Below the pieces are notes generated by a model, which saw only the letters and a list, made by a program, of their open reading frames with translations, did not search any database and was not told the origin of the DNA. The translations under genes and the position numbers were made by a program. This document shows positions 8,064-37,677 of a stretch of 37,677 nt of DNA, piece after piece. Within the stretch, counting starts at the first letter, position 1; each line of letters opens with the position of its first letter. This DNA is from Candidatus Caccovivens faecavium (lineage in GTDB: Bacteria > Bacillota > Clostridia > Christensenellales > UBA1242), in NCBI GenBank assembly GCA_018715545.1, contig DVLK01000003.1, positions 1 through 37,677 on the forward strand, given 5' to 3'.

Positions 8064-9440
8064 TTAAATATTTTCGACAATTTTAGTCGCACTTATAGGC
8101 ATCATTTTTCCATCTCTTTCCAAATAAATTTCTTTATCTCCAAATGCCTTGACAAAACGTTTTACAATAACATCGCAATATGTTTCAGACAATTCGACAT
8201 TATACGACTTTCTATTTAATTGTTCACTTGCCATAAGTGTAGAACCGCTTCCAGCAAACAAATCAAGAACTATCTCTCTTTCCCTGCTGCTATTTCTAAT
8301 AAGCTTTCCACATAGTGTTATAGGTTTCATAGTTGGATGTTCGACATTTTTGAGTGGTTTAGCATCACGAACAACATCACTCGGATAATTTTCTAAAATT
8401 TTATTTAATAGATCTAGCAATTCATCTTTTTTCATCTTGCTCAAATCTTTTGTGCTATCAAGTAATGTTGCCATTGTTCTATCGTGAATAAAATAATGTG
8501 GTTTACCATCTTCGACTTTCCAACCATACAGAATAGGTTCGTGTTGCCATTGATAGTCTGACCTACCAAGTGTAAAATGGTCTTTTACCCATACCAGTGT
8601 TTGTGATACTTTATATCCTGCATTTTTCATTGCTTCAATAAAATTCACAGATTCTTTTGTGCTATGGAACACATAGATTGCTCCACCACCTTTTGTTACA
8701 GCGAATGCGGTTTCATAGAATGACAACAAAAATTTGTAAAATGATTCATCATCTAAATTATCGTTTAATATACTACGATTCTCAATTTCTTTGCCTCTGG
8801 CTCTTGCCCTATCTTGTTCACTTGTTCCGTAGTCTATATTATAAGGCGGATCTGTTACGATGAGATCCGCCTGTTCATTATCTTCAAATAATCTTTCTAC
8901 TTCTTCAAGTTTAGTGCTGTCTCCACAAAGCAACTTATGGTTTTTAATATGCCAAATATCGCCTTTTTTTGTGAATGGTTTGTTATCTATTTCTTCAACA
9001 GCTTTTTCCACATTGAAGTTATCTTCGCTAACATTGTATTCTGTTCCTGCAAATAAGTCATCTAGTTCTTCAGTGTCAAAACCTGTCAGTGAAACAATTC
9101 CATTTTTATCTAGTTCTTTTAACAAGTCTGTAAGAAGTTCTGTATCCCATTCGCCACTTATTTTATTAAGCGCAATATTCAATGCTTTCTCTTTTTGTTC
9201 ATCTAGGTCGACAATAACACAATCTACTTCGGTATATCCTAGATGTTTCATAACTTCAAGGCGCTGATGTCCACCTACTACCGTGTTTGTTCTCTTGTTT
9301 AGTATAATTGGTTCTACATATCCAAATTCTTCAATGCTGTTCTTGAGTTTTTCAAACTCTTTATCTCCTGGTTTTAACTTTTTTCGTGGATTGTAGTCCG
9401 CCGGTTTTAAATCTTCAATTCTTAATCTTTCAATTTGCAT
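8064..9440 (-). CDS. ParB-like nuclease domain fused to an N6-adenine/N4-cytosine DNA methyltransferase (beta class)
   Basis: The N-terminus has ParB-type features (LKPADYNPRK ... GGHQRLEV). It also carries DPPY (IVTDPPYNIDYG) and a C-terminal FAGSGST SAM-binding motif. The start is moved to the ATG at 9440 (MQIERL), with GGAG upstream. The tracked start at 9476 lies in a terminator hairpin. Confidence 0.85.
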   Translation of the reverse strand: MQIERLRIEDLKPADYNPRKKLKPGDKEFEKLKNSIEEFGYVEPIILNKRTNTVVGGHQRLEVMKHLGYTEVDCVIVDLDEQKEKALNIALNKISGEWDTELLTDLLKELDKNGIVSLTGFDTEELDDLFAGTEYNVSEDNFNVEKAVEEIDNKPFTKKGDIWHIKNHKLLCGDSTKLEEVERLFEDNEQADLIVTDPPYNIDYGTSEQDRARARGKEIENRSILNDNLDDESFYKFLLSFYETAFAVTKGGGAIYVFHSTKESVNFIEAMKNAGYKVSQTLVWVKDHFTLGRSDYQWQHEPILYGWKVEDGKPHYFIHDRTMATLLDSTKDLSKMKKDELLDLLNKILENYPSDVVRDAKPLKNVEHPTMKPITLCGKLIRNSSREREIVLDLFAGSGSTLMASEQLNRKSYNVELSETYCDVIVKRFVKAFGDKEIYLERDGKMMPISATKIVENI

Positions 9441-9460
9441 TTTTATCTCCATATTTGCTA

Positions 9461-9487
9461 TAAAAAAACCACACATTAAAGTGTGGA
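9461..9487 (-). terminator. Rho-independent terminator after the PIN-like gene
   Basis: The minus strand reads CCACAC-tttaat-GTGTGG followed by TTTTTTT. Confidence 0.55.
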
Positions 9488-10544: not shown

Positions 10545-10575
10545 ATTATAACATAAAACCTTACCTATTTTTCAA
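10545..10575 (-). promoter_or_regulatory. Candidate promoter for the PIN-like gene
   Basis: Minus strand: TTGAAA (10575-10570), 19 nt spacer, then TGTTATAAT (TATAAT = 10550-10545). The spacer is long, so this is tentative. Confidence 0.35.
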
Positions 10576-11652
10576 TATTTTCTCCCAAGAAAATTCATTT
10601 CTTCCAAAATGTCCATAGCAAGCAGTTTGTTTGTATATTGGTTTCAATAGATCAAGTTCCTTTATCATATCGCCTGGTCTGAAACTGAAATTGTCTGAAA
10701 CATATTTTTCTATTTCTTCCATTGGTTTCTTGTTTGTTCCAAAGCATTCGATATAAATCGATGTTGGATCTGCAAGGCCTATAGCATAACTCACTTGTAT
10801 TTCACATTCATCTGCAAGTCCGTTTGCCACTATATTCTTTGCAACATATCTTGCATAATATGCGCCTGACCTATCAACCTTGGTAGCGTTTTTGGAACTA
10901 AAACAGCCACCACCGACTCTACCAACTCCACCATAAGTGTCAACAATTATTTTTCTACCGACACAGCCACTATCTCCAAACGAACCCCAAATTGTAAATT
11001 TGCCACTTGGATTTATTATGATTTGAGTACTTGCTCCTATAAGGTGTGCAAATTCGGTCAAAACAGGTGCAACAACCGAGTTAACGATTGTATCTCGTAT
11101 TTCTTCCTTACCTAGTAATTTATCGTGCGACACGCTTAAAACAATTGATGCAATCTCTTTTGGAGCTTTATCTTCATAGACAATTGACACTTGACTTTTA
11201 GCATCTGCAAAATAGTTTTTTGTGTTTCGTCTAAACTCTTCATACTTTTTCATAAGCTTATGTGCAAACATAATTGGCAGTGGCATAAGTTCTGGTGTTT
11301 CGTTTGTTGCATAGCCATACACAATTCCTTGATCATTTGCACATAACTCTTTCTTTACAACTGCTTGATTGATATCTGGACTCTGCTGGCTTATCTCTTT
11401 TATGATTGTAAAATCGCATTGATAGCCAATATCTTTCAAAATATCTTTTGCTATTTTATCGTAGTCAATTTTTGCTTTGGTTGTTGCTTCGCCATAAATG
11501 AATAGTTTATCATTTTTGATTGCACACTCAACCGCCATTTGACTGTTCGGATCTTGCCTTAATGCTTCATCCAGGAAGGCATCAACAATAACATCACAAG
11601 TTTTATCAGGGTGTCCAATATTAACACTTTCGCTTGTTATAACTCTTATCAT
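10561..11652 (-). CDS. metK: S-adenosylmethionine synthetase (phage-encoded MetK)
   Basis: TSESV.IGHPDK, GGGCFSSKNATKVDRSGAY and other MetK signature blocks are present. The start is moved to the ATG at 11652 (MIRVITSE), with AAAGGAG 5 nt upstream. Confidence 0.9.
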   Translation of the reverse strand: MIRVITSESVNIGHPDKTCDVIVDAFLDEALRQDPNSQMAVECAIKNDKLFIYGEATTKAKIDYDKIAKDILKDIGYQCDFTIIKEISQQSPDINQAVVKKELCANDQGIVYGYATNETPELMPLPIMFAHKLMKKYEEFRRNTKNYFADAKSQVSIVYEDKAPKEIASIVLSVSHDKLLGKEEIRDTIVNSVVAPVLTEFAHLIGASTQIIINPSGKFTIWGSFGDSGCVGRKIIVDTYGGVGRVGGGCFSSKNATKVDRSGAYYARYVAKNIVANGLADECEIQVSYAIGLADPTSIYIECFGTNKKPMEEIEKYVSDNFSFRPGDMIKELDLLKPIYKQTACYGHFGRNEFSWEKILKNR

Positions 11653-11686
11653 AAACTCTCCTTTATCAAGTAAATCCATTATGTAA

Positions 11687-13071: not shown

Positions 13072-14403
13072 TTAATTATTTTTTCTTAAAAATAATTGTC
13101 TGAAAATTGCTTCTAAAACAGGCACTACAATTCCGTTTCCTGCCTGCTTATATAGTTGCGTATTACTGATTCCACTTGCAATAACTTTATCAATTTGTTC
13201 ATCTTTCCAACCCATAAGTCGCCAGCATTCTTTTGGTGTCAATTTTCTAATTCTTAGATAATTATTAATACAATGATTTTCCGCTTTTAATACTGTCGAA
13301 CTTGCAGAGTTAGATCCACAATTTGCAGTTTGTGTTGGTGTTATATTAGTCACTTCTTTCTTATTCCAAGGATTAAACAATTCTGGAATATATCCATTCT
13401 TTTCAATAAAATCTTGATACTTTGATGCAATATATTTTTGCTCTTGAACCAGGTTATCCTTTGCTACTGAAGTAAGTGCATTGCTTGTTCCTTGCTTATT
13501 TTCTTCAATGACTTGCCCTTCTTCTCTTCCACGAATAGCAATAATTTTTGTTTCTGTACCACCACCTCCACCCGCCATAATTGTTGGGCTTATTCCATCT
13601 GGATCAAACACTTGGCGAATTTGATTATATCTTTTATCCCAAACTCCGCCTTCAAGTTTCCCTACTGCAATAAGTTTTGGTTCATGAAAATCCCTAGCAC
13701 AAAGAGTTGCACAAATATCATTGCCACCATGTAGCAACCCTTTTCGCTGATTAAATGTTGTGTTAAGTATGCTTATTATCGTTGATGCTTTTAAATAATA
13801 TCTTTCATCAACTTTCTCTTCCAAGACATCTTTTAACCTTGTTTGGAGTTTTTGGCGCTCTGGAAACACAAAAGGTATATGCTCTCCAAGAATAGATACA
13901 GCAAATACTCTTTCCCTGTTTTGTGGAACTCCATAGTCTTTTGCATTGAGAACTTGCGTATATGTTGTATATCCTAGACTTGATAAAAAAGACAACCACT
14001 TTTCGTAGTTGCCTTTAAACTTTTTGCCTATTAAATTTTTAACATTTTCTAATAATAGATATTTTGGAAGAGTTCCTTGTTCCTGTGCTTTTAAAAGTAA
14101 TCTCTCAACTTCCCACAAAAGCCCTGATCTAGTTCCACTTCCTTGTTCAAAACCACGTTGCAAACCTGCAACAGAAATATCCTGACAAGGAAAAGAATAC
14201 GTCCATAAATCTGCATAAGGCAAACACTTTATCTTTGTTATGTCGCCAAGATTATTAACATTTGGATTATGCAAAATTCGATAGCTTTTATCTGCATTTT
14301 TATCATTATCGGATATTGCAACAACTTCGTGTTCTATACCAATGTTTTTTAGTGCTTGGGTTTGCGAACCAATACCTGCAAATAATTCTATAACTTTAAG
14401 CAT
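13072..14403 (-). CDS. DNA (cytosine-5) methyltransferase
   Basis: Motifs I (ELFAGIGS), IV (FPCQDIS), VI (ENVKNL), VIII (QNRERVF) and X (GNGIVVPV) are present. The ATG overlaps the terS stop (TAATG). Confidence 0.9.
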   Translation of the reverse strand: MLKVIELFAGIGSQTQALKNIGIEHEVVAISDNDKNADKSYRILHNPNVNNLGDITKIKCLPYADLWTYSFPCQDISVAGLQRGFEQGSGTRSGLLWEVERLLLKAQEQGTLPKYLLLENVKNLIGKKFKGNYEKWLSFLSSLGYTTYTQVLNAKDYGVPQNRERVFAVSILGEHIPFVFPERQKLQTRLKDVLEEKVDERYYLKASTIISILNTTFNQRKGLLHGGNDICATLCARDFHEPKLIAVGKLEGGVWDKRYNQIRQVFDPDGISPTIMAGGGGGTETKIIAIRGREEGQVIEENKQGTSNALTSVAKDNLVQEQKYIASKYQDFIEKNGYIPELFNPWNKKEVTNITPTQTANCGSNSASSTVLKAENHCINNYLRIRKLTPKECWRLMGWKDEQIDKVIASGISNTQLYKQAGNGIVVPVLEAIFRQLFLRKNN

Positions 14404-22976: not shown

Positions 22977-22992
22977 ATTCTCTCCTCTTAAT

Positions 22993-23019
22993 CATAACGC
23001 AACACCCCGTTGCGTTATG
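22993..23019. promoter_or_regulatory. Perfect palindromic operator between the -10 box and the RBS of the LexA-like gene
   Basis: CATAACGCAAC-acccc-GTTGCGTTATG, with 11-bp arms. Confidence 0.6.
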
Positions 23020-23024
23020 AATGT

Positions 23025-23060: not shown

Positions 23061-23099
23061 TTCAAAAAAAATAAAAAAAGATAGAATAATCTATCTTCA
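23061..23099 (-). terminator. Rho-independent terminator ending the four-gene operon
   Basis: Hairpin AAGATAGA-ttat-TCTATCTT (23078-23097) followed on the minus strand by TTTTTATTTTTTTT. Confidence 0.7.
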
Positions 23100-24227
23100 A
23101 TTAACTTCCTTATATATACATTTTAAAGACTTTTTCAGTTTGCGTAATTCCATACCTTTTGTAAATAAACCTACACTAAACCTTATAGTTCCTTCTGGAT
23201 ATGAACCTAAAACTTTATGTGCGTACGGGCTACATTGCAATCCTATCCTTACAACAATTCCATATTTATCAAAAAACTTTTCAAAGTTAATAGGCTTATA
23301 TTTTGTAGGTAAGCAAGATATTATAGATGTTGCATTGGGAATTTCAAATACATTAAACAATTTAGAATCTATTAAAATCCTTTTCAATTTTCTAAACTTT
23401 TTTTGTTCTATTTGAAAAATTTTATTTATCTCTTTTTTCAAAATATAGCTTGTGCTATAATATAAACTATAAATACCAAGTAGGTTTTGTGTTCCTGGTT
23501 CTAGTCTTGTGGGTAAGGTTTTAGGCATTAACATGCTTGCTGAATCTATACCTGTACCGCCTTGAATAATGTCTTTGATTTTCAATTTTTTATCTATAAC
23601 CATACCACCGATTCCAACATACCCATACAATGTTTTGTGACCTGCAAAAACAATAGCATCTATTTTTTCTTCGGACATATTTATTTTTAGTAATCCACAA
23701 GATTGTGCCATGTCAAGAATTGTAATGGCCCCATAGTTTTTCGCTTCCTCAAATACAGGTTTATAATCTTGTATCAAACCACACACATTGCTTACATGAT
23801 TTATAATAACTAAATCAGGCTTATCTTTTTTTAATTGTTCTTTAACTAAATCTATTGATAGATTAAATCCTTTTAAACACAAATATTTAATGTTAAACTT
23901 ATAAATTTCTTGTAGGTTTGATAATACTCGATTTACAGCATTATGTTCAAACATTGTAATATACACATTCTTTAACTTTGAAAAATCCAGTCCTTTAATT
24001 AGTTGATTAAATGAAAATGTTGCGGATTGGCTAAAAACTACTTCATAATTATCATTTGCACCAACAAGTTTTTTTATATTCTTTCTTGTTTCATCTATAA
24101 AAAATTTACTTGCTTGATTGTTTCCGCGACTAATATTACCACCAACTTTTTTATAAAGCTTTACCGCTTTATAAACGCTTTTAGGTTTTCTATAAGTAGT
24201 AGAAGCATTATCAAAATAACTAATCAT
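23097..24227 (-). CDS. Cysteine desulfurase (class V aminotransferase; NifS/IscS/DndA/SspA-like)
   Basis: It has a YFDNASTT N-terminus, the PLP-lysine motif FAGHKTLYG and the active-site Cys loop VRIGLQCSPYAH. Its AAGGAG RBS lies inside the end of the upstream gene. Confidence 0.8.
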   Translation of the reverse strand: MISYFDNASTTYRKPKSVYKAVKLYKKVGGNISRGNNQASKFFIDETRKNIKKLVGANDNYEVVFSQSATFSFNQLIKGLDFSKLKNVYITMFEHNAVNRVLSNLQEIYKFNIKYLCLKGFNLSIDLVKEQLKKDKPDLVIINHVSNVCGLIQDYKPVFEEAKNYGAITILDMAQSCGLLKINMSEEKIDAIVFAGHKTLYGYVGIGGMVIDKKLKIKDIIQGGTGIDSASMLMPKTLPTRLEPGTQNLLGIYSLYYSTSYILKKEINKIFQIEQKKFRKLKRILIDSKLFNVFEIPNATSIISCLPTKYKPINFEKFFDKYGIVVRIGLQCSPYAHKVLGSYPEGTIRFSVGLFTKGMELRKLKKSLKCIYKEVN

Positions 24228-24229
24228 AT

Positions 24230-25825
24230 TTATCTCCTTGTCCTTAAGTATCTACACATCATACAACCACCTGGTATATACTTAGATGACACACACATTT
24301 GACAATGTTTACATAGTTTTTCATCTATTGAATATCCCTCTTTATCTAAATGAATAGCATTATGCATACATACACCTTCACATTTCAAACATTGCTTACA
24401 AGCATTAAACTTCATTATCTGATGAAAAATATTTTGATGTAGACTTTTATGATTTTTAACATTAAGTGTGATTATTTTTATTTTATAATCACTAATTTTT
24501 TGAAGTGATATAATTGGAACTAATGTTTTAATATCAAGAACGAGTTTCTCGCTTATAACTTTATCCCCATCTATTACTTTTCCAAATGGAATAAATAATT
24601 GAAAAAATCTATCATTTATCGGCTTTGATAAATCATAGATTTTCCCATTTTCTTGAACTGTACAATTTTGCTGAACTATCTTAACACTTTTAGCTTCTTC
24701 AAGTCCTGCTCCACCTTGTCTAGCTTTCCAACCTCCTGTATTTATGTATTCTTCTGGATTTTCTTTTCCAATAGCTCTTGCAAAATTTATTAAGAAATGA
24801 TTCCATCTTTCGTATTCCTTCTTCATATAAATTTTAGCCAAAAATTCTGAAATCACTGATGCATTTGGACAACACCAACATCCTACTCTTGAATAACCAA
24901 ATTTATATGCTTTATTAAAATCAAGATTATTTGTAAAAATATAAAGCCAAATATCAATATCCTTCCAATAAAATATTGGAGAACAAACAACTTGATTCAT
25001 AATCTTTTTATGTTCCGAATTTTCTTCTGTTCTTTTATATTTACTTCTAGCAACCGATTCACTTTTTCTTATACCATAAAAAGTTAAAACTTTTTTATTA
25101 CCGAACAATGTAGTCATCAATCTATTCACTGGACCAGTTTTAAACATATAACAACACCACCTTGACACTCTTGATGGAGGCCCTATCTTTTTCACAATAT
25201 CATAAAACTTACTATCAGTATTTCTTGCTATATGTAGGTTTATTAATTTATTTCTTTTTAAACGCCTGATATATTCATATGTGCATTTATGTTCTAAAGT
25301 TGTATCCCCAAATAAATGTTTTATTGATTTGTCATTAAGCGCCCTTATAACAAGATCCGATACTACCGTACTGTCTTTCCCACCTGAAAATGAAACCATT
25401 TTTTCATAATCCATATAAGTTTGTGTTTGCTCCTGTATGTATTTAATTGCTTCATCTTTTATTTCATTATAATGTTCTTGATTTGCTTTAATAAATAAAT
25501 TAATATAATGATTAAAACTATCATAATTAATCTTTGTATTTAAAAGTTTTTTTCTCAAACCTTTTATATCAGTAAACATTTGATTGGATAATTGCAAAGG
25601 GATTCCATCAACATAATATCTGGTCCTACCCTTCCAAATAGGTATATCTCTAAAATTTTTTCCTAGTAACAATTCTAACATTATTTTTTCTTGAGGAAAA
25701 ACAGGTCTAAGATCTGCTGAAATATATTTCAATTTTTCATTACATAACCTACAATTAAAATTACCCTTTTCGGTTTTAATAATTGGTACTTTGCACTGAT
25801 TACACCAATAAATAAAATTTTCCAT
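24230..25825 (-). CDS. PAPS-reductase-family PP-loop ATP pyrophosphatase (DndC/SspD/BrxP-like) with an N-terminal Zn ribbon and a C-terminal ferredoxin-like Cys clusters
   Basis: The N-terminus has CNQC...CRLC. The PP-loop is SFSGGKDS (nt about 25370-25390). Cys motifs SRWCC and SRVGCWCCP are present. The C-terminus has CKQCLKCEGVC and CKHCQMC...C..C. No CysH-type ECGLH tail was seen. Confidence 0.75.
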   Translation of the reverse strand: MENFIYWCNQCKVPIIKTEKGNFNCRLCNEKLKYISADLRPVFPQEKIMLELLLGKNFRDIPIWKGRTRYYVDGIPLQLSNQMFTDIKGLRKKLLNTKINYDSFNHYINLFIKANQEHYNEIKDEAIKYIQEQTQTYMDYEKMVSFSGGKDSTVVSDLVIRALNDKSIKHLFGDTTLEHKCTYEYIRRLKRNKLINLHIARNTDSKFYDIVKKIGPPSRVSRWCCYMFKTGPVNRLMTTLFGNKKVLTFYGIRKSESVARSKYKRTEENSEHKKIMNQVVCSPIFYWKDIDIWLYIFTNNLDFNKAYKFGYSRVGCWCCPNASVISEFLAKIYMKKEYERWNHFLINFARAIGKENPEEYINTGGWKARQGGAGLEEAKSVKIVQQNCTVQENGKIYDLSKPINDRFFQLFIPFGKVIDGDKVISEKLVLDIKTLVPIISLQKISDYKIKIITLNVKNHKSLHQNIFHQIMKFNACKQCLKCEGVCMHNAIHLDKEGYSIDEKLCKHCQMCVSSKYIPGGCMMCRYLRTRR

Positions 25826-25835
25826 ATTAACTCCT

Positions 25836-25871
25836 TTAAAAAAGTACCAATCATTATTGATTTGGTACTTA
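25836..25871 (-). terminator. Intra-operon hairpin with a short U-run (partial terminator or RNA stability element)
   Basis: AAGTACCAA (25842-25850) pairs with TTGGTACTT (25862-25870) and covers the helicase stop codon. On the minus strand it is followed by TTTT and then AAAGGAG. Confidence 0.4.
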
Positions 25872-27857
25872 ATTTAATTTTAAATTTGATTCTTTCAACC
25901 ACCTATAATACGATACATAATCGTCATTATTTTCAATTAGATAATTCAGCTTATCTCTGCTCCTATAATTCATTATTATCAATTTCTTTTTGGCGCGAGT
26001 ACAAGCTACATAAAACAATCTTATCTCTTCTTCTAATCTTTCAATCAAATTATTATGCTTTATATATTCAAAATTTTCATCTTCTGCCACAGCATAATTG
26101 TTTAAAACAATAGCGTTTTTATTGAAACTTATTAAATTATCATTTTCTTCATACTCATATTGAGTATTAGATACTCTATATAAATTTCTATCTGCATTAT
26201 ACAAAATAACTATATCTCCAGCCAAGCCTTTAAATGTATGAATTGTGCTTATGATAATGGGACTTTCAAACACTACCTCTGATTCTGGTTCATTTTGTTG
26301 TGTGTTTATCATCCTATTTAAATGGTCTATTATTTGAAGATTGGATAACCCTTGCATAGATAAGTCACGTATTATCTCTTTAATTCTATTTAAATTTGAG
26401 TTATATTGTTCTTTATAAATGCAAGAATAATATTCACATATCTTTGTTGCTTCAAATAATCTATTGATTATGTAGGTCAATGGATGGTTCTTAATCTCAT
26501 ACTTTAAACCATCTAAAACATTGTCTAAATGACTTTCAGTAAAAAATTTAATACAAGCAAGATAATAATCAGTAAAAAATATTTCAAACTTTTCAATAAT
26601 GTCATTTCTGCTTAAATAACGAAGAACCTTACATAAATCTATTATTGCTTTACTTCTAAATATTGATTTTGCTGAATAAACTTGTGCTTTAATATTCTGT
26701 TGCTTTAAATTGTTTGCTACATCACTAACCTCCCTATTAGTTCTGCATAAAACTACAATATTATTATTACATGCTTTATAATCAAAATCAATATTTTGTG
26801 CCACACTTTTTACAATATCAACAATATTTTTCCCATACGTTATTTCAAACACATCAATTTCTGAATCTTTTTTATAAGCTACCAAAGGAATATTTTTGAA
26901 TGACAATAAACTGTTGTGAAAATAAAATTTTGAATTAAAAATATCATTAATAATTTTTATTAAAGTAGAGTTCGTGCGAAAATTAGTATCATTTATTAAG
27001 CTATTTCCACCAGAATTGTTAAATTTTTCTATAAGTTTGATAAAAGCTTTTTTATTACTTCCTCTAAAACCATATACAGACTGTTTTTCATCTCCAACTA
27101 TTGTAATGTTAATAAATTTCATTAGATTTTCTATTAACTCCATTTGGTATAAGTTAATATCTTGACACTCATCAATAAACACATATTGAACTTTTTCTGC
27201 TATCTTTTTAGCGATGCCTTCTTCACTCGTCAATCTTGCCGCATAGCATAAAAGATCATTGTGCGTCAAAATATTAAGTTCTTTTTTCTCTTTTTCTATT
27301 TCTTCATCTAGCTTTTCATATAAATCACTAATGTATTGCCTAACTTCATCCCAAAAATCCATCTTATTTGATTTGTAGCTTAATTCATACTTAATTCCTT
27401 TATCTTTCATTTCTTTATAAAAATTTTTCAACAAATCTTTTATGGTATATGTAGGTATTTTAGAGCAAATTTTTTCATTATAATTTTCGTTTACTATTCT
27501 ATCTATAATTAAATTTGTTTCATAGCTAAACGAATCTATTCTATAATTTGGGCTTATTCCAATTCTAAGTCCATATTCTCTTATTATATCATCACAAAAG
27601 GAGTGAATAGTGCAAATTGAAGCCATATTTATCTTATCTATTTGATCTCGAAGTTTATTACTATCGCATGCTTGTATCAATAGTTTTTGTCTTAACCTCT
27701 CTTTCATTTCCTTTGTTGCTTTATTAGTAAAAGCTATCAACACAATATTCATTATGTCAACATGTTTTTCTATAATTAAACTTTCTATTTTGCTTACGAT
27801 TGTTTCTGTCTTACCAGTTCCGGCACTTGCTATTATCGTATTTAATTGACTATTCAT
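25869..27857 (-). CDS. UvrD/PcrA-type SF1 helicase (AddA-like motor without a nuclease domain)
   Basis: Walker A ASAGTGKTE, motif II FIDECQDIN, motif III GDEKQSVYGFRGS, STIHTFKGL and motif VI YVACTRAKKKL are present. Its start overlaps the upstream gene by 8 nt. Confidence 0.8.
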   Translation of the reverse strand: MNSQLNTIIASAGTGKTETIVSKIESLIIEKHVDIMNIVLIAFTNKATKEMKERLRQKLLIQACDSNKLRDQIDKINMASICTIHSFCDDIIREYGLRIGISPNYRIDSFSYETNLIIDRIVNENYNEKICSKIPTYTIKDLLKNFYKEMKDKGIKYELSYKSNKMDFWDEVRQYISDLYEKLDEEIEKEKKELNILTHNDLLCYAARLTSEEGIAKKIAEKVQYVFIDECQDINLYQMELIENLMKFINITIVGDEKQSVYGFRGSNKKAFIKLIEKFNNSGGNSLINDTNFRTNSTLIKIINDIFNSKFYFHNSLLSFKNIPLVAYKKDSEIDVFEITYGKNIVDIVKSVAQNIDFDYKACNNNIVVLCRTNREVSDVANNLKQQNIKAQVYSAKSIFRSKAIIDLCKVLRYLSRNDIIEKFEIFFTDYYLACIKFFTESHLDNVLDGLKYEIKNHPLTYIINRLFEATKICEYYSCIYKEQYNSNLNRIKEIIRDLSMQGLSNLQIIDHLNRMINTQQNEPESEVVFESPIIISTIHTFKGLAGDIVILYNADRNLYRVSNTQYEYEENDNLISFNKNAIVLNNYAVAEDENFEYIKHNNLIERLEEEIRLFYVACTRAKKKLIIMNYRSRDKLNYLIENNDDYVSYYRWLKESNLKLN

Positions 27858-30735
27858 CGATTAATGATCCTTTACAAATATCTTTCAATGTACAAAACCT
27901 ACAATAACTAGATGTCGAATCACACATGTTACTGTATATTGTACTTGTATTATTTATAATTTTTGATATTCTTTTAATTCCATCTTGATAAAACTTTTTA
28001 TTGTTCAACTGAGTATTTAATTTAAAACTAATAAAATTAATTAATGCAGTTTTATCATCAAATTTACTCCCGTTTTCTAATTGAAACACTAACTCATCAA
28101 AATGTTTAAAATCAAATTTTCTTCCACCACTACTGATAACCAAAAGATCTAAATTTTTACTGATATCGAATTCTGTTTCTCGTCCTGTATCAAGGTTTAG
28201 CATAATCAATGTTTCTCTTGTGCAAACATTGAATCTATCAAATATAACTTTTCTTTTACCAATTTTAAATTTGCAATTTTTACAAGAGAATTTACCACTC
28301 TTAAAATGAAGTTCTATAAAATCATCGATGTATTTTCTGCAAGTAATACGAATATCCTTTTTTTCATTTTCTCCTAACATGTCAAAATATTTTAAAACGG
28401 AAAGTAATGAATTAAAATAAATCTTATCAACTTCCTGCCCAAACTCCTTGCTGTTAAGATTATATCTTCTACTACTTCTCCCTAAATTTGTAAAAAATCT
28501 ATTTGTTATCAAAGCTTTTGCATAAAAAACTAGTAAAAATTTATCGCTATAACTAATTTTATTTTTGAAAAGACAATTACAAACGAATAGTTTAGGACAC
28601 AAATATTGTAGCAGCAATTGATTGAGATTGATCTTACTTACATTAAAGTTTTTAAAAATAAGTTCTCTATTTTCTAACTTATACCCTTTTAGTTTTGAGT
28701 GTGATGGTTCAAAAATTAATCTTGAATTTAACGTTTTTTGTATTTCATACGCATAATTTGAAATATCCATATAATTGTTGTTTTCTTTGCTAATATAGGT
28801 ATATGTTATTTGTTTTTCAACAAAACCAAATACATTTTTAAAAATATGCCTTGACATTTTTAAGTGATAATCCATCATATAATTTTTCTGAATGGAAAGA
28901 TTTAACTTTTGCAGAATTTCAATAATATCATTTGTATATGGGAATTCATTTTTTAAAATCCTTGGATATTTATTTTCTTCAAACAGCGGAAAGTAAACAT
29001 AATCATACTTTGTATAGTTTTCCATATTTACTACTGCCAACTTATAATCATCTTTCTTCTTATTTTCAACATATAAACATTGAGATAGTAAATCTTTTAA
29101 ATTTTCGGCAAAATAGACATAATCTACTTCTATACTATCATTGCACTTTACTTTATTTAACCCATCTAACAATATTGCTATAGCCTGCTTATCTTCACTT
29201 GTATCTAATTTGATTTTGTTTAAATTAAACACACTAATTAAAAGTTTAATGTGTTGCTTTATATTCCCATTGACTTTAAGTTTATTAACTATCACTTCTA
29301 TAAAATTTAAGAATTTTAGAATATAATTTAGCGTGGATTTTTGCACTCTGTGTAAAGGATGTGCTTCAAAATTTTCTTCATCTTTAATATTTGATTTTAA
29401 TTTAATAAGTTCATTTACACATTCTTTCCATTGTGTCAAAGTATTAAGTTGTTCGAAATAACTTTCTATATAATGAAAATCAATCAAAACACTTTCTTCA
29501 AATTTTTTATCTAGATTCCATTGTGTTTCCAACAATAACTTAAAAGTATCTAAATCCAAATCCTTAGCGACTACTTTGTATATGGAAATTATAAACTTTC
29601 CAAATGTTGTTTCAAACTCTGTAGAATTATATCCTAGAAACGAGATTCTTTTAAAATCATTAAATAATTTTAACTTATCTATATAACCTAACTTCCTACC
29701 TTTCACTTCTATAACTTCATTCAAAAAAGCCTGCTTTTCATAATAAATTGGTTTTAAACAACCATGAAAAGTGGCTTTAGGAACGAATACTCCCACTTCA
29801 CTAAAAACATCATCAAGAATATATAGTAACTCATCCTTATTCTTTGTTATCACTATTGCAAAATCTTCTAAAATAGAATTTAATTGATTGACTTCTGGAT
29901 TTAAGCTTTTTATTTTATCAGAAATTTGTTTAGCAATGAATTTAAACTCCTCTTCTCTACTAGAAAATGGTTTGTAGATTTTTATTTTGTCGACATCTTC
30001 CGTTTTTAAATTTATTTTAGATTGAGTAAAAATATTATCTTCTAGTTGGTTAAAAAATCCCTCCCTCTTTCCTGCAATTTTTCTTTGTTCTATACTATAA
30101 CCCAAACCTATCAATAAAGGTTTCAACAACTCTGATGATATAAAGTCACTATGTTTATTAATAAATATTAAATTTTTTGAATTTAAGCTTTTAATCAAAC
30201 ATTCTTGCATATCATTAAAAAAGACAAATCCGACAAACACAACTGTATCATATTCTTTCAATATATTAACTGCATTGTTTATAAGAGCACTTTTTAATAT
30301 ATCTTGTTTAGATTGCTGTAAATTAGTGCAAACAGATTTATAAATTGTAAAAATATCCTTTTCAACAAAAGAATATTCGTTAAAATCAATATTGATGCTT
30401 TGAGCAGAAACATTGTTCAATAAAAGCAAACTATATAAATCTTCAAGTCCATAAATACTATTTTTATAAGCTAATTGCTTTTCTCCATCAAATAGTGTAA
30501 CAATAGCCTTATTAATCAAAAATCTTAATTCGGTATTATTAATACACTTTGTATAATCAACATAATTTTGTGCTTTATTAATTAAATCTGCAAAAGAAAC
30601 TACACGATGTGCAGATGAAAATATTTCATTTTTCTTTAAATTTTGAGTTGCAGTAATAACAATTGCTTTTGAATCAGCAATATTAAATATACTGTAGTCA
30701 TCAACCTCAACAATTGTTGCCTTATTGATTTTCAT
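27850..30735 (-). CDS. AddB-like subunit: a helicase-like scaffold without Walker A plus a C-terminal Cas4/AddB-type Fe-S PD-(D/E)XK-like nuclease domain
   Basis: 961 aa. The first Cys is in QYLCPKLF (nt about 28598), and the C-terminal CRFCTLKDIC gives the C...CxxCxxxxxC spacing of AddB/Cas4. IFDRF...LNLDTG resembles IDRI...DYKTG, but the Lys is not evident. Confidence 0.5.
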   Translation of the reverse strand: MKINKATIVEVDDYSIFNIADSKAIVITATQNLKKNEIFSSAHRVVSFADLINKAQNYVDYTKCINNTELRFLINKAIVTLFDGEKQLAYKNSIYGLEDLYSLLLLNNVSAQSINIDFNEYSFVEKDIFTIYKSVCTNLQQSKQDILKSALINNAVNILKEYDTVVFVGFVFFNDMQECLIKSLNSKNLIFINKHSDFISSELLKPLLIGLGYSIEQRKIAGKREGFFNQLEDNIFTQSKINLKTEDVDKIKIYKPFSSREEEFKFIAKQISDKIKSLNPEVNQLNSILEDFAIVITKNKDELLYILDDVFSEVGVFVPKATFHGCLKPIYYEKQAFLNEVIEVKGRKLGYIDKLKLFNDFKRISFLGYNSTEFETTFGKFIISIYKVVAKDLDLDTFKLLLETQWNLDKKFEESVLIDFHYIESYFEQLNTLTQWKECVNELIKLKSNIKDEENFEAHPLHRVQKSTLNYILKFLNFIEVIVNKLKVNGNIKQHIKLLISVFNLNKIKLDTSEDKQAIAILLDGLNKVKCNDSIEVDYVYFAENLKDLLSQCLYVENKKKDDYKLAVVNMENYTKYDYVYFPLFEENKYPRILKNEFPYTNDIIEILQKLNLSIQKNYMMDYHLKMSRHIFKNVFGFVEKQITYTYISKENNNYMDISNYAYEIQKTLNSRLIFEPSHSKLKGYKLENRELIFKNFNVSKINLNQLLLQYLCPKLFVCNCLFKNKISYSDKFLLVFYAKALITNRFFTNLGRSSRRYNLNSKEFGQEVDKIYFNSLLSVLKYFDMLGENEKKDIRITCRKYIDDFIELHFKSGKFSCKNCKFKIGKRKVIFDRFNVCTRETLIMLNLDTGRETEFDISKNLDLLVISSGGRKFDFKHFDELVFQLENGSKFDDKTALINFISFKLNTQLNNKKFYQDGIKRISKIINNTSTIYSNMCDSTSSYCRFCTLKDICKGSLIDE

Positions 30736-30760
30736 ATGAGCATTATATCACAAATTTTGA

Positions 30761-32155: not shown

Positions 32156-32184
32156 TTGATTTTTTATTTACAAACTGATATAAT
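32156..32184 (+). promoter_or_regulatory. Near-consensus sigma-A promoter for the plus-strand regulator
   Basis: TTGATT (32156-32161), 17 nt spacer, TATAAT (32179-32184), with TG at -15/-14. Confidence 0.55.
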
Positions 32185-32215
32185 TATATCAAATTGTAGA
32201 AAAGGAGTGTTTTAT

Positions 32216-32602
32216 ATGACCAAGGAAGAATTAAAATCATTATTTGAGGATTATTGGTATGACAATCAATATTTAAAAGAAAAGTCTAAAGAAATAATGA
32301 CAACAAATAATTACTTAGCTAATACTGATGCCAAAAATTTCTTTGACGATTCTATAAATTATGAAAAGCAACAAATAGCATTGATTTTACATAAAAAACA
32401 ACATATAGAATCCCTTATTCAAACACTCAATCAACCATATAAAACTTTGATGTATTTAAAATACATAACCTTTCTGACATTTGACCAAATTGCTGACAGA
32501 ATGAGCTATTCTACAAAACGTATTTATCAACTACATAATGAAGCTATTAATAAAATACTTGAAGATTTGAATAAAAAAGACCCCAACATTAGCAAAAATT
32601 AG
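32216..32602 (+). CDS. Sigma-70 region-4-like / ArpU-type transcriptional regulator
   Basis: The start is taken at the ATG at 32216 (MTKEELKS), with AAAGGAG 8 nt upstream. The C-terminal HTH reads LTFDQIADRMSYSTKRIYQLHNEAINKIL. Confidence 0.55.
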   Translation: MTKEELKSLFEDYWYDNQYLKEKSKEIMTTNNYLANTDAKNFFDDSINYEKQQIALILHKKQHIESLIQTLNQPYKTLMYLKYITFLTFDQIADRMSYSTKRIYQLHNEAINKILEDLNKKDPNISKN

Positions 32603-32637: not shown

Positions 32638-32687
32638 TTGAGAATTAAAATATTTCATGTAATCAATAATTAAAAGGAGAAGAATAC

Positions 32688-35600
32688 ATGAAAAATTTTA
32701 AAATCAATAGCGAACATATTGCAACTGCTGAAGACAAAATAGAAATTTCTATTCCCTCTAACTTGAAAAACATTAAAGTGGTTGAAGCCATACTTAATGT
32801 TTCAGTTAATAGTGTTACATTAGAAAATAGAAATTTCCAAGTTGACTTTGAGTCAATAAAAAATTCAACAACCGACAAATCCTGGACTTATGTTGATTAT
32901 TTAAAAAATGTAAAAAATTTAGATAATTTAAAGATTAACATAAGCGACGAACTCCAAACGGTCATTGATAGTGATGCAACTACTTTAATTCTTCATTTTA
33001 AATGCAATGATGCTCATATTACTTTTGATAATTCTACAAGTGATTTTATAGATATTGATTACATTTCACTTGAAGAATTTCAAAATAATGGAAGCTCTCA
33101 AAATATTAATCTTGAGAAATCAGGAAATGCAACCATTAATCTTGCAACTGGTAAATTAAACATTACTACTCCTCTTATCTCTTCAGATGAAAATGTTTTG
33201 CCAATTTCTATCAATGCAAATTATTATTCAGTTCAAAATGATAAACTTAAAAATATTGGCTTGCCTAATAACTGGAACTTAAATGTAAATCAGTTTTTAA
33301 TAAAAAATGAAAATGATAATGAAAAATTGAGGTTTACATACATAGATGAAAATGGCAAAAACCAAATCATTGAAGAAAAGTACTATTATATAGATGAAAA
33401 TAATAAAAAAATATATGTAAATAGAAATCAAGTTACCGTTGATTTAGATGGAAATCTCCAATATAATGATAAAGAAGTCAAAACTGAACTTGAAGCACCA
33501 TCTGGCATTAAACTAATTTCTTCTATAAAAGACTTCAAAAATTCACATTTAGTAGATTATGAACCAGAAGAACTCTCAAATATCAAGCAACAAATTGAAC
33601 AAACTCAATTACAATACGATAACTATAATCTTTCATATAAAACTAACAACCAACAACTTGCATCATTGATTTTAACAAAGGAATATTTAAATAAACAACT
33701 TACCGCCCAAATAGATAAGTTGGCACAAAATGAAGAATATTTGGATTTACAAAGGAAACTAGAATCAATTAGAATGTGTTATTTCCAAACTACACGTACA
33801 TTTAAAGATTTAGATCCTACTGTGACCAATCCTTCTGTTTTGGAATATGCCCGGGATTATTTTAATAATAATGTACAAGCAAACAATAATGAGCCAATTT
33901 TAAAACAAAATAATATAACACTAGAAATGATAAATGATTTATTCAAATATTATTTTGAGAATATACCTATTTATGTTTCTAACAACAGCACTGATAAAGA
34001 ATTAACTATTCACGATGCACGTGTCTTGGCAAACATATTTTCAAATGAGGCATCTGGAATTTATTCTCTTGGGTTTGATGGAGATGACACTTTCAAAGGC
34101 ACAATAAAATCAGGAGAAGATGATCTAGCTTTACAAAAAGAAATATATAAACAAATTATTAGCGAAGAAACTTTTAAGAGTAATATAAAGAATGAAATTG
34201 AAAATATCATTAATGATGAATTTATTGTAACATTTAACTCTGAAAATTCTTCATTAAACGCCCAAGAAAATGAGAAATCCTATAATTTTGATATTTCAAA
34301 TATTAAAGAATTATTAGGTGAAGGCAAAAATATAAATCTTTCTTCAAAAGATTTAATATCATTAAACAGTCAAATTCAGTCACTAGTTAGCACAAATACT
34401 AGTTATCTTTCATTGATGAAAAAATTAAAAGACGAATTAGATAAGCTTAACCATCAAAAAGAACAATATGAAATGCAAGTTCCAGTTCATTATCTTTATA
34501 ACGAAGATAATATTATTTATGGCTTTGGTAAAACTAGCGATAAAAATACTTTTAGATTAGTTTTAATTACAGATCCATACGAAAACGCGGTATATTTCAC
34601 ATATGAATCGCTAGAATCTAATAGACTAGAAAGCATTATTGATAGCGCTGAAAAATTAATCACTTTCTCATATAAAAATGGACTTTTGTCAACAATCAAG
34701 GATGCTCGTGATAGAGAAGTCAAATTTAACTATGACACAAATAATATGCTCCATTGTATTGTCCATGTTGATAACACAAAATCATATTTTTACTATGAAG
34801 AAGAAAATGAACTAGATTATGCTCGACTAATAGCAGTTTTAAACGAAACAGGACTTGGAACGCTTTTTGAGTATACTGATAATAAAATCACAAAAGCAAC
34901 GGCATTATCTGTTTTAAATGATGTTACAAATGGAAAAGTTACCTATAAAAATATTAAAAGCGAAAACTCTACTGATGCCGTAAATTTAGAAACTCTTATT
35001 TCTTCAACACTCCAAACTTGTGAAGATTATAAGTTAAAAGATGCGATTACCTTTAAATATGAAAATTGTAAATCAACAACTTTAACCAATAGTAAAAACA
35101 AAAGTGTCACATATTTGTTTGACAAAGAAGGAAGAGTTAGAACTATTTACGAAAATGGATTTGATGAAAGCAATGATAATAGTCAAATAAATTTCCATGC
35201 CAAAGATTTTACTTACCAAGACAATAAAATAAGTAAAACAATAAGTCCACTTCCATACTCGCAAAATTACCTAAGTGACGTGGTTTTTAAAGAAGATGCA
35301 AAAACTATTGAATATGGTTTCTATCTTGGAGAAGAAGATTCCGTTTGTTCAGCAACAACAATACCTTATAGTTACGAGGTTAATGCTAAATATTATACGA
35401 TCGCAAGTTCTGACACAACAAAATCAATGATGGTTTCAATGTCTGACGACAAATTAGCAATGTTAAATGATGAAATTTCAAAAAGCAAGACGCAAGAAGA
35501 TATCTGTTCACACCATGCATATGTTGTTTCTGGATGGGCAAAATCAGGAAATGCCTCTTTCACATTGACAGATGAGAAAGACAAAGATGTATATGCTGAT

Positions 35601-37677
35601 TATATTAAAAATCGTAAGTTTGAATTAAGAGTGAAAGTTAAGTATGAAAGTGAGGATGAAAACAAAGAAAATTCTGACACTTTCATAACACCATTTGATT
35701 GGAGAAATACCGAATGGCAATATTGTGCTACTGCTATTTTATTAAGAAATGATACAATTTTAAGCATTGAATGTTCTATTGACTATTCTGAAAACACAGG
35801 CGACCTTATCTTTACCGATTTAGATTTTAAACAAGCAGACTTTGAAATAACCGATTATGACTCATTTAAACGCCCTATTAAGAATTATTCTGCACATAGC
35901 AATTTTATAACAACCTATGACTATGCTGATGACGAAACAACCAACCCATGTAAGCAAACTGTAACAATTAACAAAAACACATATATTACAACATTTGAAT
36001 ATACCAAAGAAGGCAAACTTCTTCGTTCAATCGACTATAATGGAATTGTTAAAGAAAACGTCTATAATGACCAAGGCATTGTTGTAAAAACTATTACCTA
36101 CCATAAAGATGAACCAACAAATAAATTTTATGATGAGAAAAAATTGGATGAAAAAGGGAAAGAAACCGCGTCTATTAACGAACTTGGCGAAGAAACAGCT
36201 TCGTATGAATATATAAACGGAACAGGTATTGTTTCTTCAAGCGTAGACGAAAACGGAGTTAAAACTTCCTATGGCTATTCCCCTGCTGATACTCTCCTTG
36301 AAACCTCAATCACAGCAAACGGAATTGAAAACACGAATACCTACGGCTACAACCTTGATTTTCTCACTTCACTTAAACATAATGACTTTGAAATAGGATA
36401 TGATTACGATGAGCAAGGTAGAACCAAACAAATCAACATTGCCGGCAACAAGTATCTATCAAAAGAATATGGAGAAAATGAAGAAACAACAACACTTAGC
36501 TCAAATGAAGTTTATCGTCAAACTTTCAATGATAGTGGTGACGTTCTTGACATTTACTACAAATCGAACGCAAATGATAGTGAGACTAAACTTGTTGAAA
36601 ATGTTTATGATACATATGGTAATATTACAATCTCAAAGGATTTAATCGAAAATAACACTCATACCTACTATTATGATAAGTTTGGCAATACGGTAAAAGA
36701 AACAAACACACAGCATGGTCAAAATATAACTATTGAAAACGTAATGGATGATGATAGTCATAGCAACATAAAAACATCAACTATAACAATAGGTTCCGAA
36801 ACTCTTGACTATATTTACGATAGAGAGGAAACCCCTGATGCTAAATTATTTGCCATTTCTCTTCCTGGTGGCATAGAACAAACTATTGACTATGATAAAC
36901 TTCAAAGAGTTAAGGAAATTCAAACATTAGATTTTGCTAAACAATTCACTTACTTGAAAAATGGAGATCATACAACAAACCTTATATCTAAACTTTTATT
37001 TGCTATAAAAAACGAAACTAAAGATAATTTAACTTATAAATATGATAAAAAAGGCAATATCACAGAAATTAGAGAAAACAACAAACTTCTCGCACGTTAT
37101 AAGTATGATGCACTTTCAAGAATAATTAGAGAAGATAATTCTTTATTTAATAAAACCTATACTTACTCTTATGATGCTGGTGGAAATATAACTCAAAGAG
37201 ACGAATATGCTTTCACGCTTGTTGAAAATCTTGATTTTGAAACTTCAACAAATTCTTTTAATTACTCATATTCAACTAAAGGCTGGAAAGATCAATTAAA
37301 GGAATATAATGGCGAAAAGTTTGTTTATGACAGTTTAGGTAATCCTACAACCTATCGTGATAAAACTCTCCTTTGGTCACATGGCAGACAACTTGACAAA
37401 TTTTCAGACGTTGCTGAATATAAATATAACGCAAATGGTATAAGAACAAGCAAAACAATAAATGTAAATATGTTGGAATGCAATTGTGGTAAAGAAGATT
37501 GCGATTGCAATGGAACATTCACAACCTCATTCTTCCTAAATGGAAATAAAATAATTAAACAGCATGACTGTTGCAATGATTTGACATTCTATTATGGAGC
37601 TGATGGTGTTACTGGTTTCCACCTTAAAAATAACCTTGTCGATGATGATTTCTATTATAAGAAAAATGCTCAAAACG
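32688..37677 (+). CDS. RHS/YD-repeat polymorphic-toxin-type protein. The 5' end is complete and the 3' end is truncated by the window (at least 1663 codons).
   Basis: Hand translation from the ATG at 32688 (AAAGGAGA RBS at 32673-32680) is open to the last base. Many YD-repeat units are present, for example FSYKNGLLSTIKDARDREVKFNYD, YKYDKKGNITEIRE, YSYDAGGNITQRDEY, YDSLGNPTTYRDK and YKYNANGIRTSK. It is absent from the ORF track, presumably because it has no in-window stop. Confidence 0.85.
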   Translation, partial: MKNFKINSEHIATAEDKIEISIPSNLKNIKVVEAILNVSVNSVTLENRNFQVDFESIKNSTTDKSWTYVDYLKNVKNLDNLKINISDELQTVIDSDATTLILHFKCNDAHITFDNSTSDFIDIDYISLEEFQNNGSSQNINLEKSGNATINLATGKLNITTPLISSDENVLPISINANYYSVQNDKLKNIGLPNNWNLNVNQFLIKNENDNEKLRFTYIDENGKNQIIEEKYYYIDENNKKIYVNRNQVTVDLDGNLQYNDKEVKTELEAPSGIKLISSIKDFKNSHLVDYEPEELSNIKQQIEQTQLQYDNYNLSYKTNNQQLASLILTKEYLNKQLTAQIDKLAQNEEYLDLQRKLESIRMCYFQTTRTFKDLDPTVTNPSVLEYARDYFNNNVQANNNEPILKQNNITLEMINDLFKYYFENIPIYVSNNSTDKELTIHDARVLANIFSNEASGIYSLGFDGDDTFKGTIKSGEDDLALQKEIYKQIISEETFKSNIKNEIENIINDEFIVTFNSENSSLNAQENEKSYNFDISNIKELLGEGKNINLSSKDLISLNSQIQSLVSTNTSYLSLMKKLKDELDKLNHQKEQYEMQVPVHYLYNEDNIIYGFGKTSDKNTFRLVLITDPYENAVYFTYESLESNRLESIIDSAEKLITFSYKNGLLSTIKDARDREVKFNYDTNNMLHCIVHVDNTKSYFYYEEENELDYARLIAVLNETGLGTLFEYTDNKITKATALSVLNDVTNGKVTYKNIKSENSTDAVNLETLISSTLQTCEDYKLKDAITFKYENCKSTTLTNSKNKSVTYLFDKEGRVRTIYENGFDESNDNSQINFHAKDFTYQDNKISKTISPLPYSQNYLSDVVFKEDAKTIEYGFYLGEEDSVCSATTIPYSYEVNAKYYTIASSDTTKSMMVSMSDDKLAMLNDEISKSKTQEDICSHHAYVVSGWAKSGNASFTLTDEKDKDVYADYIKNRKFELRVKVKYESEDENKENSDTFITPFDWRNTEWQYCATAILLRNDTILSIECSIDYSENTGDLIFTDLDFKQADFEITDYDSFKRPIKNYSAHSNFITTYDYADDETTNPCKQTVTINKNTYITTFEYTKEGKLLRSIDYNGIVKENVYNDQGIVVKTITYHKDEPTNKFYDEKKLDEKGKETASINELGEETASYEYINGTGIVSSSVDENGVKTSYGYSPADTLLETSITANGIENTNTYGYNLDFLTSLKHNDFEIGYDYDEQGRTKQINIAGNKYLSKEYGENEETTTLSSNEVYRQTFNDSGDVLDIYYKSNANDSETKLVENVYDTYGNITISKDLIENNTHTYYYDKFGNTVKETNTQHGQNITIENVMDDDSHSNIKTSTITIGSETLDYIYDREETPDAKLFAISLPGGIEQTIDYDKLQRVKEIQTLDFAKQFTYLKNGDHTTNLISKLLFAIKNETKDNLTYKYDKKGNITEIRENNKLLARYKYDALSRIIREDNSLFNKTYTYSYDAGGNITQRDEYAFTLVENLDFETSTNSFNYSYSTKGWKDQLKEYNGEKFVYDSLGNPTTYRDKTLLWSHGRQLDKFSDVAEYKYNANGIRTSKTINVNMLECNCGKEDCDCNGTFTTSFFLNGNKIIKQHDCCNDLTFYYGADGVTGFHLKNNLVDDDFYYKKNAQN

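Follow-up and report, generated by a model that had tools for sequence, protein, structure and literature searches.

What might a phage do with two enzymes of sulfur transfer and two proteins resembling the AddAB helicase-nuclease, all encoded in a single operon? The question is raised by a four-gene operon (23097-30735) in a 37,677-nt stretch of Candidatus Caccovivens faecavium DNA (contig DVLK01000003.1), which is referred to here, at its full length, as the window. DNA phosphorothioation (PT) is, to our knowledge, the only known enzymatic modification of the DNA backbone, and the answer considered somewhat probable is that the operon represents a compact prophage-borne PT modification/defence module, in which an AddAB-like motor would be the effector and would also handle the DNA for modification.

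The operon comprises four densely packed genes on the minus strand, the first in order being gene 4 (27850-30735; 961 aa, AddB-like), followed by gene 3 (25869-27857; 662 aa), a UvrD/AddA-like superfamily 1 (SF1) helicase, gene 2 (24230-25825; 531 aa), a PP-loop (PAPS-reductase-like) sulfurtransferase of the SspD/BrxP-N type, and gene 1 (23097-24227; 376 aa), a class-V pyridoxal-phosphate cysteine desulfurase similar to SspA and DndA. The original prediction of four minus-strand genes, with 8 nt shared by genes 4 and 3 (27850-27857) and 2 nt separating genes 2 and 1 (24228-24229), agrees with the coordinates of the open reading frames (ORFs), and all of the motifs it quoted are found in the translations of genes 1-4. 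An extended -10 promoter element, TGATATAAT (30742-30750, minus strand), lies 6 nt 5' of the gene-4 ATG, and no Shine-Dalgarno sequence was read ahead of this codon, so that the operon transcript may be leaderless. Given that TGnTATAAT is found 5-8 nt ahead of the start codon in the window and also in four related loci (L008, L003, L007 and L016), the conservation of this element suggests that the operon is a transcription unit of its own. At the other end, a hairpin resembling an intrinsic terminator (23064-23098, minus strand), which has a 9-bp AT-rich stem, a 4-nt loop and a long U-tract, overlaps the stop codon of gene 1. The hairpin described earlier as a strong terminator is thus real, but its strength was overstated, with a folding energy of about -10 kcal/mol (z = -2.8 against shuffled sequences), and it was omitted by a consensus terminator scan that demands at least three G-C pairs.

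As regards the sulfur module, gene 1 is, by its sequence, a cysteine desulfurase of the SspA/DndA type, and presumably active as such. It matches Aminotran_5 in Pfam (8.6e-58), SspA (1.7e-31) and DndA (9.5e-31) in PADLOC, the cysteine desulfurase family TIGR01977 in NCBIfam (5e-97) and the cysteine desulfurases of the PDB (7e-28), and it has the motifs YFDNASTT, GHK and LQCSP. Gene 2 contains SFSGGKDS, RVGCWCCP, an N-terminal CxxC...CxxC and a CxxCxxCxxxC cluster, in an architecture formed by an N-terminal Zn ribbon, a PP-loop core (Pfam PAPS_reduct, 1.6e-33) and a C-terminal 2x[4Fe-4S] ferredoxin-like domain. Its best PADLOC match is to BrxP (3.4e-75), over positions 17-512 of the 779 in the profile, and the matches to SspD (8e-15) and DndC (4e-14) are much weaker; in NCBIfam it falls under every CysH and DndC cut-off, scoring 39 bits against the 290 needed for DndC. 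The sulfur module, which had been described as "DndA/DndC-like", is instead of the Ssp/BrxP type. As BrxP is effectively a fusion of SspD and SspB, which makes PT together with BrxC and a desulfurase (PMC12914056), the extent of the match implies that gene 2 corresponds to the SspD-like part only, and its succession of PAPS-reductase, alpha+beta and ferredoxin-like domains is common to BrxP and a subset of SspD proteins (PMC12839542).

The relatives of gene 2 point in the same direction. The homologs nearest to it among phages, with 47% and 42% identity, are located in SspD-SspB-SspC-SspA-PbeA-like arrays, and, among its best 80 metagenomic relatives, all of the informative loci have an SspD-SspB-SspC-SspA(-PbeA-like) array, with neither a UvrD nor an AddB-like gene as neighbour in any of them. 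Identity with the SspD proteins of the SspD-SspB-SspC-SspA arrays is 41-52%, and a neighbour-joining tree of 74 sequences places the gene-2 proteins that are linked to a helicase pair within the SspD radiation of the Ssp arrays. The AlphaFold2 (AF2) model of gene 2 (pLDDT 82.5) has Foldseek matches to solved structures that cover only the generic PAPS-reductase core, from CysH/APS-reductase and TtuA-type enzymes, and no DndC, SspD or TdpC structure is found among its best 50 PDB matches. Gene 2 is, on this evidence, an SspD/BrxP-type PP-loop sulfurtransferase nested in SspD, and its activity is presumed from this kinship. The public annotation reads just "PAPS reductase family protein". An identity as assimilatory CysH or as a tRNA thiolation enzyme is rejected on the scores, the neighbours and the tree, in agreement with the expectation that gene 2 would not group with these enzymes.

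Other arrangements of SspD-type genes were also encountered. The five-gene SspD-SspB-SspC-SspA-PbeA-like array, whose last member is a phospholipase D (PLD)-helicase, occurs very commonly in metagenomes, those of the gut among them (L001, L002, L020-L099 and L101), and it is also present on phage contigs (MT835493, MT835506 and IMG/VR). Solitary full-length SspD-type genes occur in L078, L089 and L095, with no SspB, SspC, desulfurase or helicase pair within up to 10 kb.

The other half of the operon is formed by genes 3 and 4. Gene 3 was predicted to be a complete UvrD/PcrA helicase, and this is well supported, at the level of an SF1 helicase of the UvrD type, by the Pfam matches to UvrD-helicase (7.6e-53) and UvrD_C (1.5e-27) and by an intact Walker A motif and DECQD. 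The best match in NCBIfam is AddA, as is the top sequence match in the PDB (3u44_A, 3.1e-28), and the protein stops at 662 aa, with no nuclease domain found through Pfam, NCBIfam or comparison with the PDB.

Gene 4, on the other hand, matches no Pfam, PADLOC or NCBIfam model, and its relatives, which are publicly annotated as "hypothetical protein", belong to no NCBIfam family and have only marginal PADLOC matches to GajB and Cas4 (E of at least 3e-4). An exhaustive profile search returned a family of 145 clusters at 50% identity, of which approximately 40 are full length. Only E263, P591, C713, C945, C948 and C954 are invariant in 49 members, and these cysteines constitute the arrangement C713 plus C945-x2-C948-x5-C954; ten of the 49 reach PDDEXK_1 in Pfam and one reaches Cas4. 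The AF2 model of gene 4 (pLDDT 78, pTM 0.64) has the AddB chains 4cei_B and 3u44_B as its top Foldseek matches in the PDB, over the full length (E ~1e-14, TM ~0.5), followed by UvrD helicases and RecC. By sequence, the profile of the close family has no match in the PDB, and a broader family profile was needed, which matches AddB (8.4e-12) with the CxxCxxxxxC aligned to the AddB Fe-S motif. The protein homolog search with this broad profile returned only the close clade, and the phage collection, IMG/VR and the plasmids contain no match to gene 4, the sole plasmid match being a distant one from Paenibacillus, found with the family member P0087. An hhalign comparison of the close-family profile with one AddB-type protein, P0161, gave no information on the nuclease site.

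Given this, gene 4 is, on the basis of its family profile and structural model, a predicted AddB-like protein, whose scaffold resembles a degenerate SF1 helicase lacking Walker A and whose C-terminal Fe-S domain is of the Cas4/AddB type. The earlier description of a 961-aa AddB-like protein thus stands as regards fold, profile and the invariant Fe-S cysteines, but the nuclease activity it implied is unsupported by a conserved catalytic triad. The homologs of genes 3 and 4 are adjacent at every locus examined, and at least one relative of gene 4, the 1695-aa P0053, forms a single protein with a UvrD helicase. The fold, the profile, the natural fusion and the invariable adjacency point to genes 3 and 4 as an AddAB-like two-subunit motor, with a presumed motor activity.

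The partners that would be expected in known PT systems are missing. The tblastn searches of the window returned no homolog of SspB, SspC, PbeA, DndB, DndD or DndE, which bears out their reported absence: SspB (DUF4007) queries from two loci had nothing better than E = 2, the SspC ORC/Cdc6-type ATPase had nothing better than E = 4.8, with no SspC/BrxC-like match, and the DndB/DndD/DndE queries from L011 and L014 gave only noise, with a best E of 0.012 in a structural gene. None of the four operon proteins has a PADLOC match to DndFGH, for which no DndF, DndG or DndH query was used, or to Pbe, PbeC having been seen only at L011, L014 and L017. The nine largest other ORFs of the window match phage structural or replication, methyltransferase, SAM-synthetase or RHS-repeat families, and indirectly, through these families, no DndFGH, SspE, BrxC or PglZ was seen; neither was BrxC, PglZ or BrxL found among the ORFs examined, PglZ and BrxL not having been searched with profiles of their own. 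The four-gene set matches no catalogued system in PADLOC, NCBIfam, Pfam or the literature to 2026, as had been anticipated, the scan for catalogued systems being that of PADLOC 2023, which predates Tdp.

The four genes are found together elsewhere, both in related phages (31-63% identity) and in an unrelated chromosomal locus. In the phage lineage, they co-occur in L003, L004 and L007 (45-63% identity, or 45-99% with L008 included) and in L016 (32-55%). In the chromosomal locus, L013, a desulfurase, a Fer4-containing PAPS-reductase and a protein of 398 aa are encoded together with an AddB-like::UvrD fusion, in which the counterparts of genes 3 and 4 are joined (24-44% identity), and L010 has the same gene set as far as its contig extends. 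In these two loci, a gene for a homolog of the C-terminal third of SspC, of approximately 400 aa and without the ATPase (276-1541 in L010 and 6432-7628 in L013; E = 1e-16), sits between the SspD-like and SspA-like genes, and tblastn found no homolog of this C-terminal-only protein in the window, whose lineage is without such a gene.

More distant pairs (17-22% identity) adjoin dnd genes in L011, L014 and L017/18, with a complete dndCDEA operon beside the pair in L017/18 and parts of such a set in L011 and L014. In all of these, the pair is divergent from three genes, namely a small ORF, a PbeC of full length (5e-206) and an ORF of approximately 130 aa, whose order and sizes recall those of PbeB, PbeC and PbeD (arrangement as in PMC6459918). 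No PbeA-like gene is found among the genes called at these loci, at which the helicase present is the pair, and the module looks, from its gene content, like a Pbe variant in which PbeA has been replaced. The module of L017/L018 (6225-13951), with dndCDEA and an adjoining GmrSD gene, is from Kroppenstedtia eburnea (WP_380145125.1; GCA_042680205.1), a cultured carrier of the Dnd-linked variant; the protein WP_380145125.1 is listed in 54 blocks of the collection. In the Paenibacillus sp. 37 plasmid pART37 (L015; NZ_CP043762.1, 381879-408083), DpdH, DpdJ and DpdD-like genes are followed by the AddB-like/UvrD pair and then by three dynamin-family genes, and no PT genes are annotated near the pair. 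In total, a modification-based defence system adjoins the pair at six of the seven informative distant loci, and at five of them it is PT-based. With PT clusters present in some 8% of genomes (PMC12914056), the chance of at least five PT-linked loci in seven would be approximately 6e-5, as a rough and conservative estimate.

The mechanism proposed for this compact PT modification/defence module would begin with gene 1, which would take sulfur from cysteine as a persulfide, after which gene 2 would activate the backbone phosphate by means of ATP and insert the sulfur into the DNA backbone. Gene 3 would be an active SF1 helicase and gene 4 an AddB-like subunit with an Fe-S cluster and no ATPase motif, and the motor made up of these two would translocate on DNA and tell PT-marked self from unmarked foreign DNA, taking the place that PbeA, DndFGH or TdpAB occupies in other PT systems. 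This role as effector is suggested by the position of the pair, which sits where PbeA would be expected and beside the restriction-side genes of Dpd. The motor would probably also supply the ATPase and the DNA handling needed for PT insertion, given that SspB, SspC, DndD and DndE are absent from the window and that L010 and L013 keep only the ATPase-less C-terminal third of SspC. The foreign DNA may be either cleaved or, as has been reported for Pbe, simply unwound or blocked, both outcomes being possible because no conserved nuclease triad is visible.

Several observations weigh against this proposal. In the phage lineage, the conservation of the four genes reflects in part simple synteny, given that their flanks are likewise conserved in L003, L004, L007 and L016. 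The pair can stand alone, as it does without sulfur genes in L005 and L006, of the same phage lineage, and no recognisable modification genes are found beside the pair of L019. No conserved D...(D/E)xK triad was found in the nuclease-like domain of gene 4, and PT synthesis requires SspB and SspC, or BrxC, according to published work. Finally, the distant loci are a small and unsystematic sample, comprising eight of the approximately 40 full-length gene-4 clusters.

The alternative that survives best, although it is rather unlikely, is that the operon only modifies DNA, with the pair as the DNA-handling/ATPase partner that replaces SspB and SspC, and with PT marking the phage DNA for self-protection against restriction, whether PT-dependent restriction by the host or another kind, or as an epigenetic mark, and no restriction arm. 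This would explain why SspB, SspC, DndD and DndE are missing from the window, why an ATPase-less SspC fragment is all that L010 and L013 retain, and why gene 4 lacks a conserved nuclease triad, and it would be in keeping with the C5 methylase, the ParB-fused N6/N4 methylase and the S-adenosylmethionine (SAM) synthetase of the same phage and with the existence of phage contigs that carry Ssp modification genes. However, the pair of L017/18 accompanies a complete dndCDEA, which has its own ATPase and DNA-recognition partners; the pair is located with Pbe-like genes of the restriction side (L017/18) and with Dpd genes (L015), and a pair without sulfur genes, as in L005 and L006, would serve no purpose as a cofactor of modification alone.

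Less probable still is a reading as two unrelated neighbours, namely an AddAB-like recombination or end-processing enzyme of the phage replication region and an independent sulfur module. The operon is located immediately upstream of the LexA-like gene and those of the SNF2 helicase and the primase, which would fit such an enzyme, as would the solitary pairs of L005 and L006, and the conserved flanks mean that the co-occurrence in the lineage could be due to inheritance. Against this, both modules are found together outside the phage lineage and outside phages (L013 and L010), the pair accompanies PT modules of another chemistry (Dnd) in L011, L014 and L017, the four genes are tightly coupled between one promoter and one terminator, and the family of the pair is found in defence islands.

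It is very improbable that genes 1 and 2 thiolate a base, a tRNA or a small molecule, or build the Fe-S clusters that both genes 2 and 4 need, for although PP-loop chemistry is common to tRNA thiolation enzymes and the solved structural matches of gene 2 are only CysH/APS-reductase and TtuA-type cores, gene 2 is far below the NCBIfam CysH cut-offs, is nested in SspD, which itself has SspB, SspC and SspA as neighbours, and shares the architecture of BrxP, for which PT synthesis was shown genetically.

A broader and more tentative proposal may be made, in which the uncharacterised AddAB-like pair would be a new, portable effector family for modification-based immunity of the Ssp, Dnd/Pbe and Dpd types. 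Here, the motor might read PT while translocating, as AddB reads Chi, and might allow SspD and SspA to install PT without SspB or SspC, a single motor playing both roles. If true, one motor for both modification and discrimination would amount to a fifth kind of PT architecture. Two sulfur enzymes and one motor of the well-understood AddAB/UvrD class would make a simple system for studying the minimal machinery of PT insertion. How the PT restriction arms sense a mark that is present at only 10-15% of sites is a question left open in the literature (PMC12914056), and the same reduced system could address how a translocating enzyme reads backbone sulfur. With the gene-4 family, which comprises approximately 145 clusters at 50% identity, the repertoire of the defence islands gains a so far unnamed protein family, and gut phages are seen to carry such sulfur/AddAB-like modules.

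The surroundings of the operon are those of a phage or prophage, with genes for a capsid, portal, large terminase, primase-helicase, SNF2 helicase, LexA-like S24 repressor and an XRE/ImmA pair. A nearly identical locus, with 94-99% identity between the proteins, is found on a 175-kb contig of a metagenome-assembled genome of an uncultured Clostridia. The phage has several DNA-modification functions besides the sulfur module, which were assigned through family matches and are all on the minus strand: a C5-cytosine DNA methylase (13072-14403), a ParB_N-fused N6/N4 DNA methylase (8064-9476) and a SAM synthetase (10561-11679). For the operon, the G+C content is 0.25-0.28, compared with 0.30-0.38 for the structural genes and 0.38 for the portal region, so that the operon, said earlier to have roughly half the G+C of the portal gene, is indeed lower, but at approximately 70% of the phage level. 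The low-G+C tract reaches approximately 35,000, past the operon, and a composition specific to the operon is rejected on this ground.

A perfect 12-bp inverted repeat, TCATAACGCAAC-N5-GTTGCGTTATGA (22992-23020), is placed between TTGATT-17-TATAAT, a promoter-like sequence, and the ribosome-binding site that serves the LexA-like gene, and it is a candidate operator; the terminator scan called it a plus-strand terminator. On the plus strand, a DUF1492/sigma-like gene (32156-32602) is followed by an RHS-repeat ORF (32670-37676) of at least 1663 aa, which continues past the right end of the window and has homologs of 1966-2047 aa at the corresponding place in L003 and L007. This ORF may encode a polymorphic toxin carried by the prophage, or else a tail protein. 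In one member of the phage lineage (L005, 8934-12677, and L006), what follows the pair is, in place of the sulfur genes, an ORF of 63 aa and a protein of over 1248 aa with a DUF5722 domain, and this junction may represent a prophage boundary or a module swap.

Comparison with the known systems places the operon close to several of them. The reviews and primary papers to 2026 describe dnd, ssp, tdp and brxPCZL as the systems of PT synthesis, and DndFGH/SspFGH, SspE, PbeABCD, DndI and TdpAB as their partners, with no mention, in this literature, of a partner of the UvrD/AddB type. The operon resembles SspABCD in that genes 1 and 2 are SspA-like and SspD-like, but it is without SspB (DUF4007) and the SspC ATPase, and its partner is the AddB-like/UvrD pair, which comes first in order, instead of SspE, SspFGH or a PbeA-like protein. 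With BREX type 4, in which BrxP-dependent PT synthesis has been shown genetically (PMC12914056), it shares the best match of gene 2 (BrxP, 3.4e-75) and the PAPS-reductase, alpha+beta and ferredoxin-like architecture, but gene 2 lacks the DUF4007/SspB-like part fused in BrxP. It differs from DndABCDE-DndFGH in that gene 2 fails the DndC cut-off and that no DndB, DndD or DndE is found in the window.

DndCDEA-PbeABCD is approached through the distant relatives of the pair, which adjoin dnd genes with PbeB-like, PbeC and PbeD-like genes, whereas the window is without PbeB, PbeC, PbeD, DndC, DndD and DndE. PbeA, like gene 4, has no PD-(D/E)xK active site, and Pbe stops replication without DNA cleavage (PMC6459918), but PbeA is a fusion of PLD with a superfamily 2 (SF2) helicase, and the motor of the operon is formed by an SF1 (UvrD/AddA-like) helicase and an AddB-like Fe-S subunit. 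Membership of canonical Ssp, Dnd, BREX type 4 or Pbe is rejected, as their defining partners are absent. Gabija is also rejected: gene 3 matches the GajB profiles, as would any UvrD-like helicase, and no match to GajA, the OLD-family nuclease, was found among the four operon proteins.

TdpABC, compared through its general description only, has the same self/non-self logic as that proposed for the operon, given that TdpAB is an ATP-driven translocase-nuclease which is inhibited by PT on self DNA, although TdpA is a hexameric ATPase and not an SF1 helicase. In the literature, TdpC is a single PAPS-reductase-like enzyme that is sufficient for PT. No Tdp entry is found among the best 50 Foldseek matches in the PDB for gene 2 or gene 4.

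The AddAB of Bacillus subtilis (PDB 3U44 and 4CEI), finally, is similar in that gene 4 resembles AddB over its full length, with the C...CxxCxxxxxC kept, and in that AddA is the best solved relative of gene 3. On the other hand, gene 3 is without the C-terminal RecB-type nuclease domain of AddA, gene 4 has neither a Walker A motif nor an evident nuclease triad and only approximately 10% identity with AddB, and the operon is found with DNA-modification genes in a phage/defence-island context, and not in one of housekeeping recombination. A housekeeping AddAB is rejected on the missing AddA nuclease and on this context. The combination of Ssp-type sulfur enzymes with an AddAB-like pair, which has no description in the literature to 2026 or in the libraries searched, thus looks, from the predicted gene products, like a new variant.

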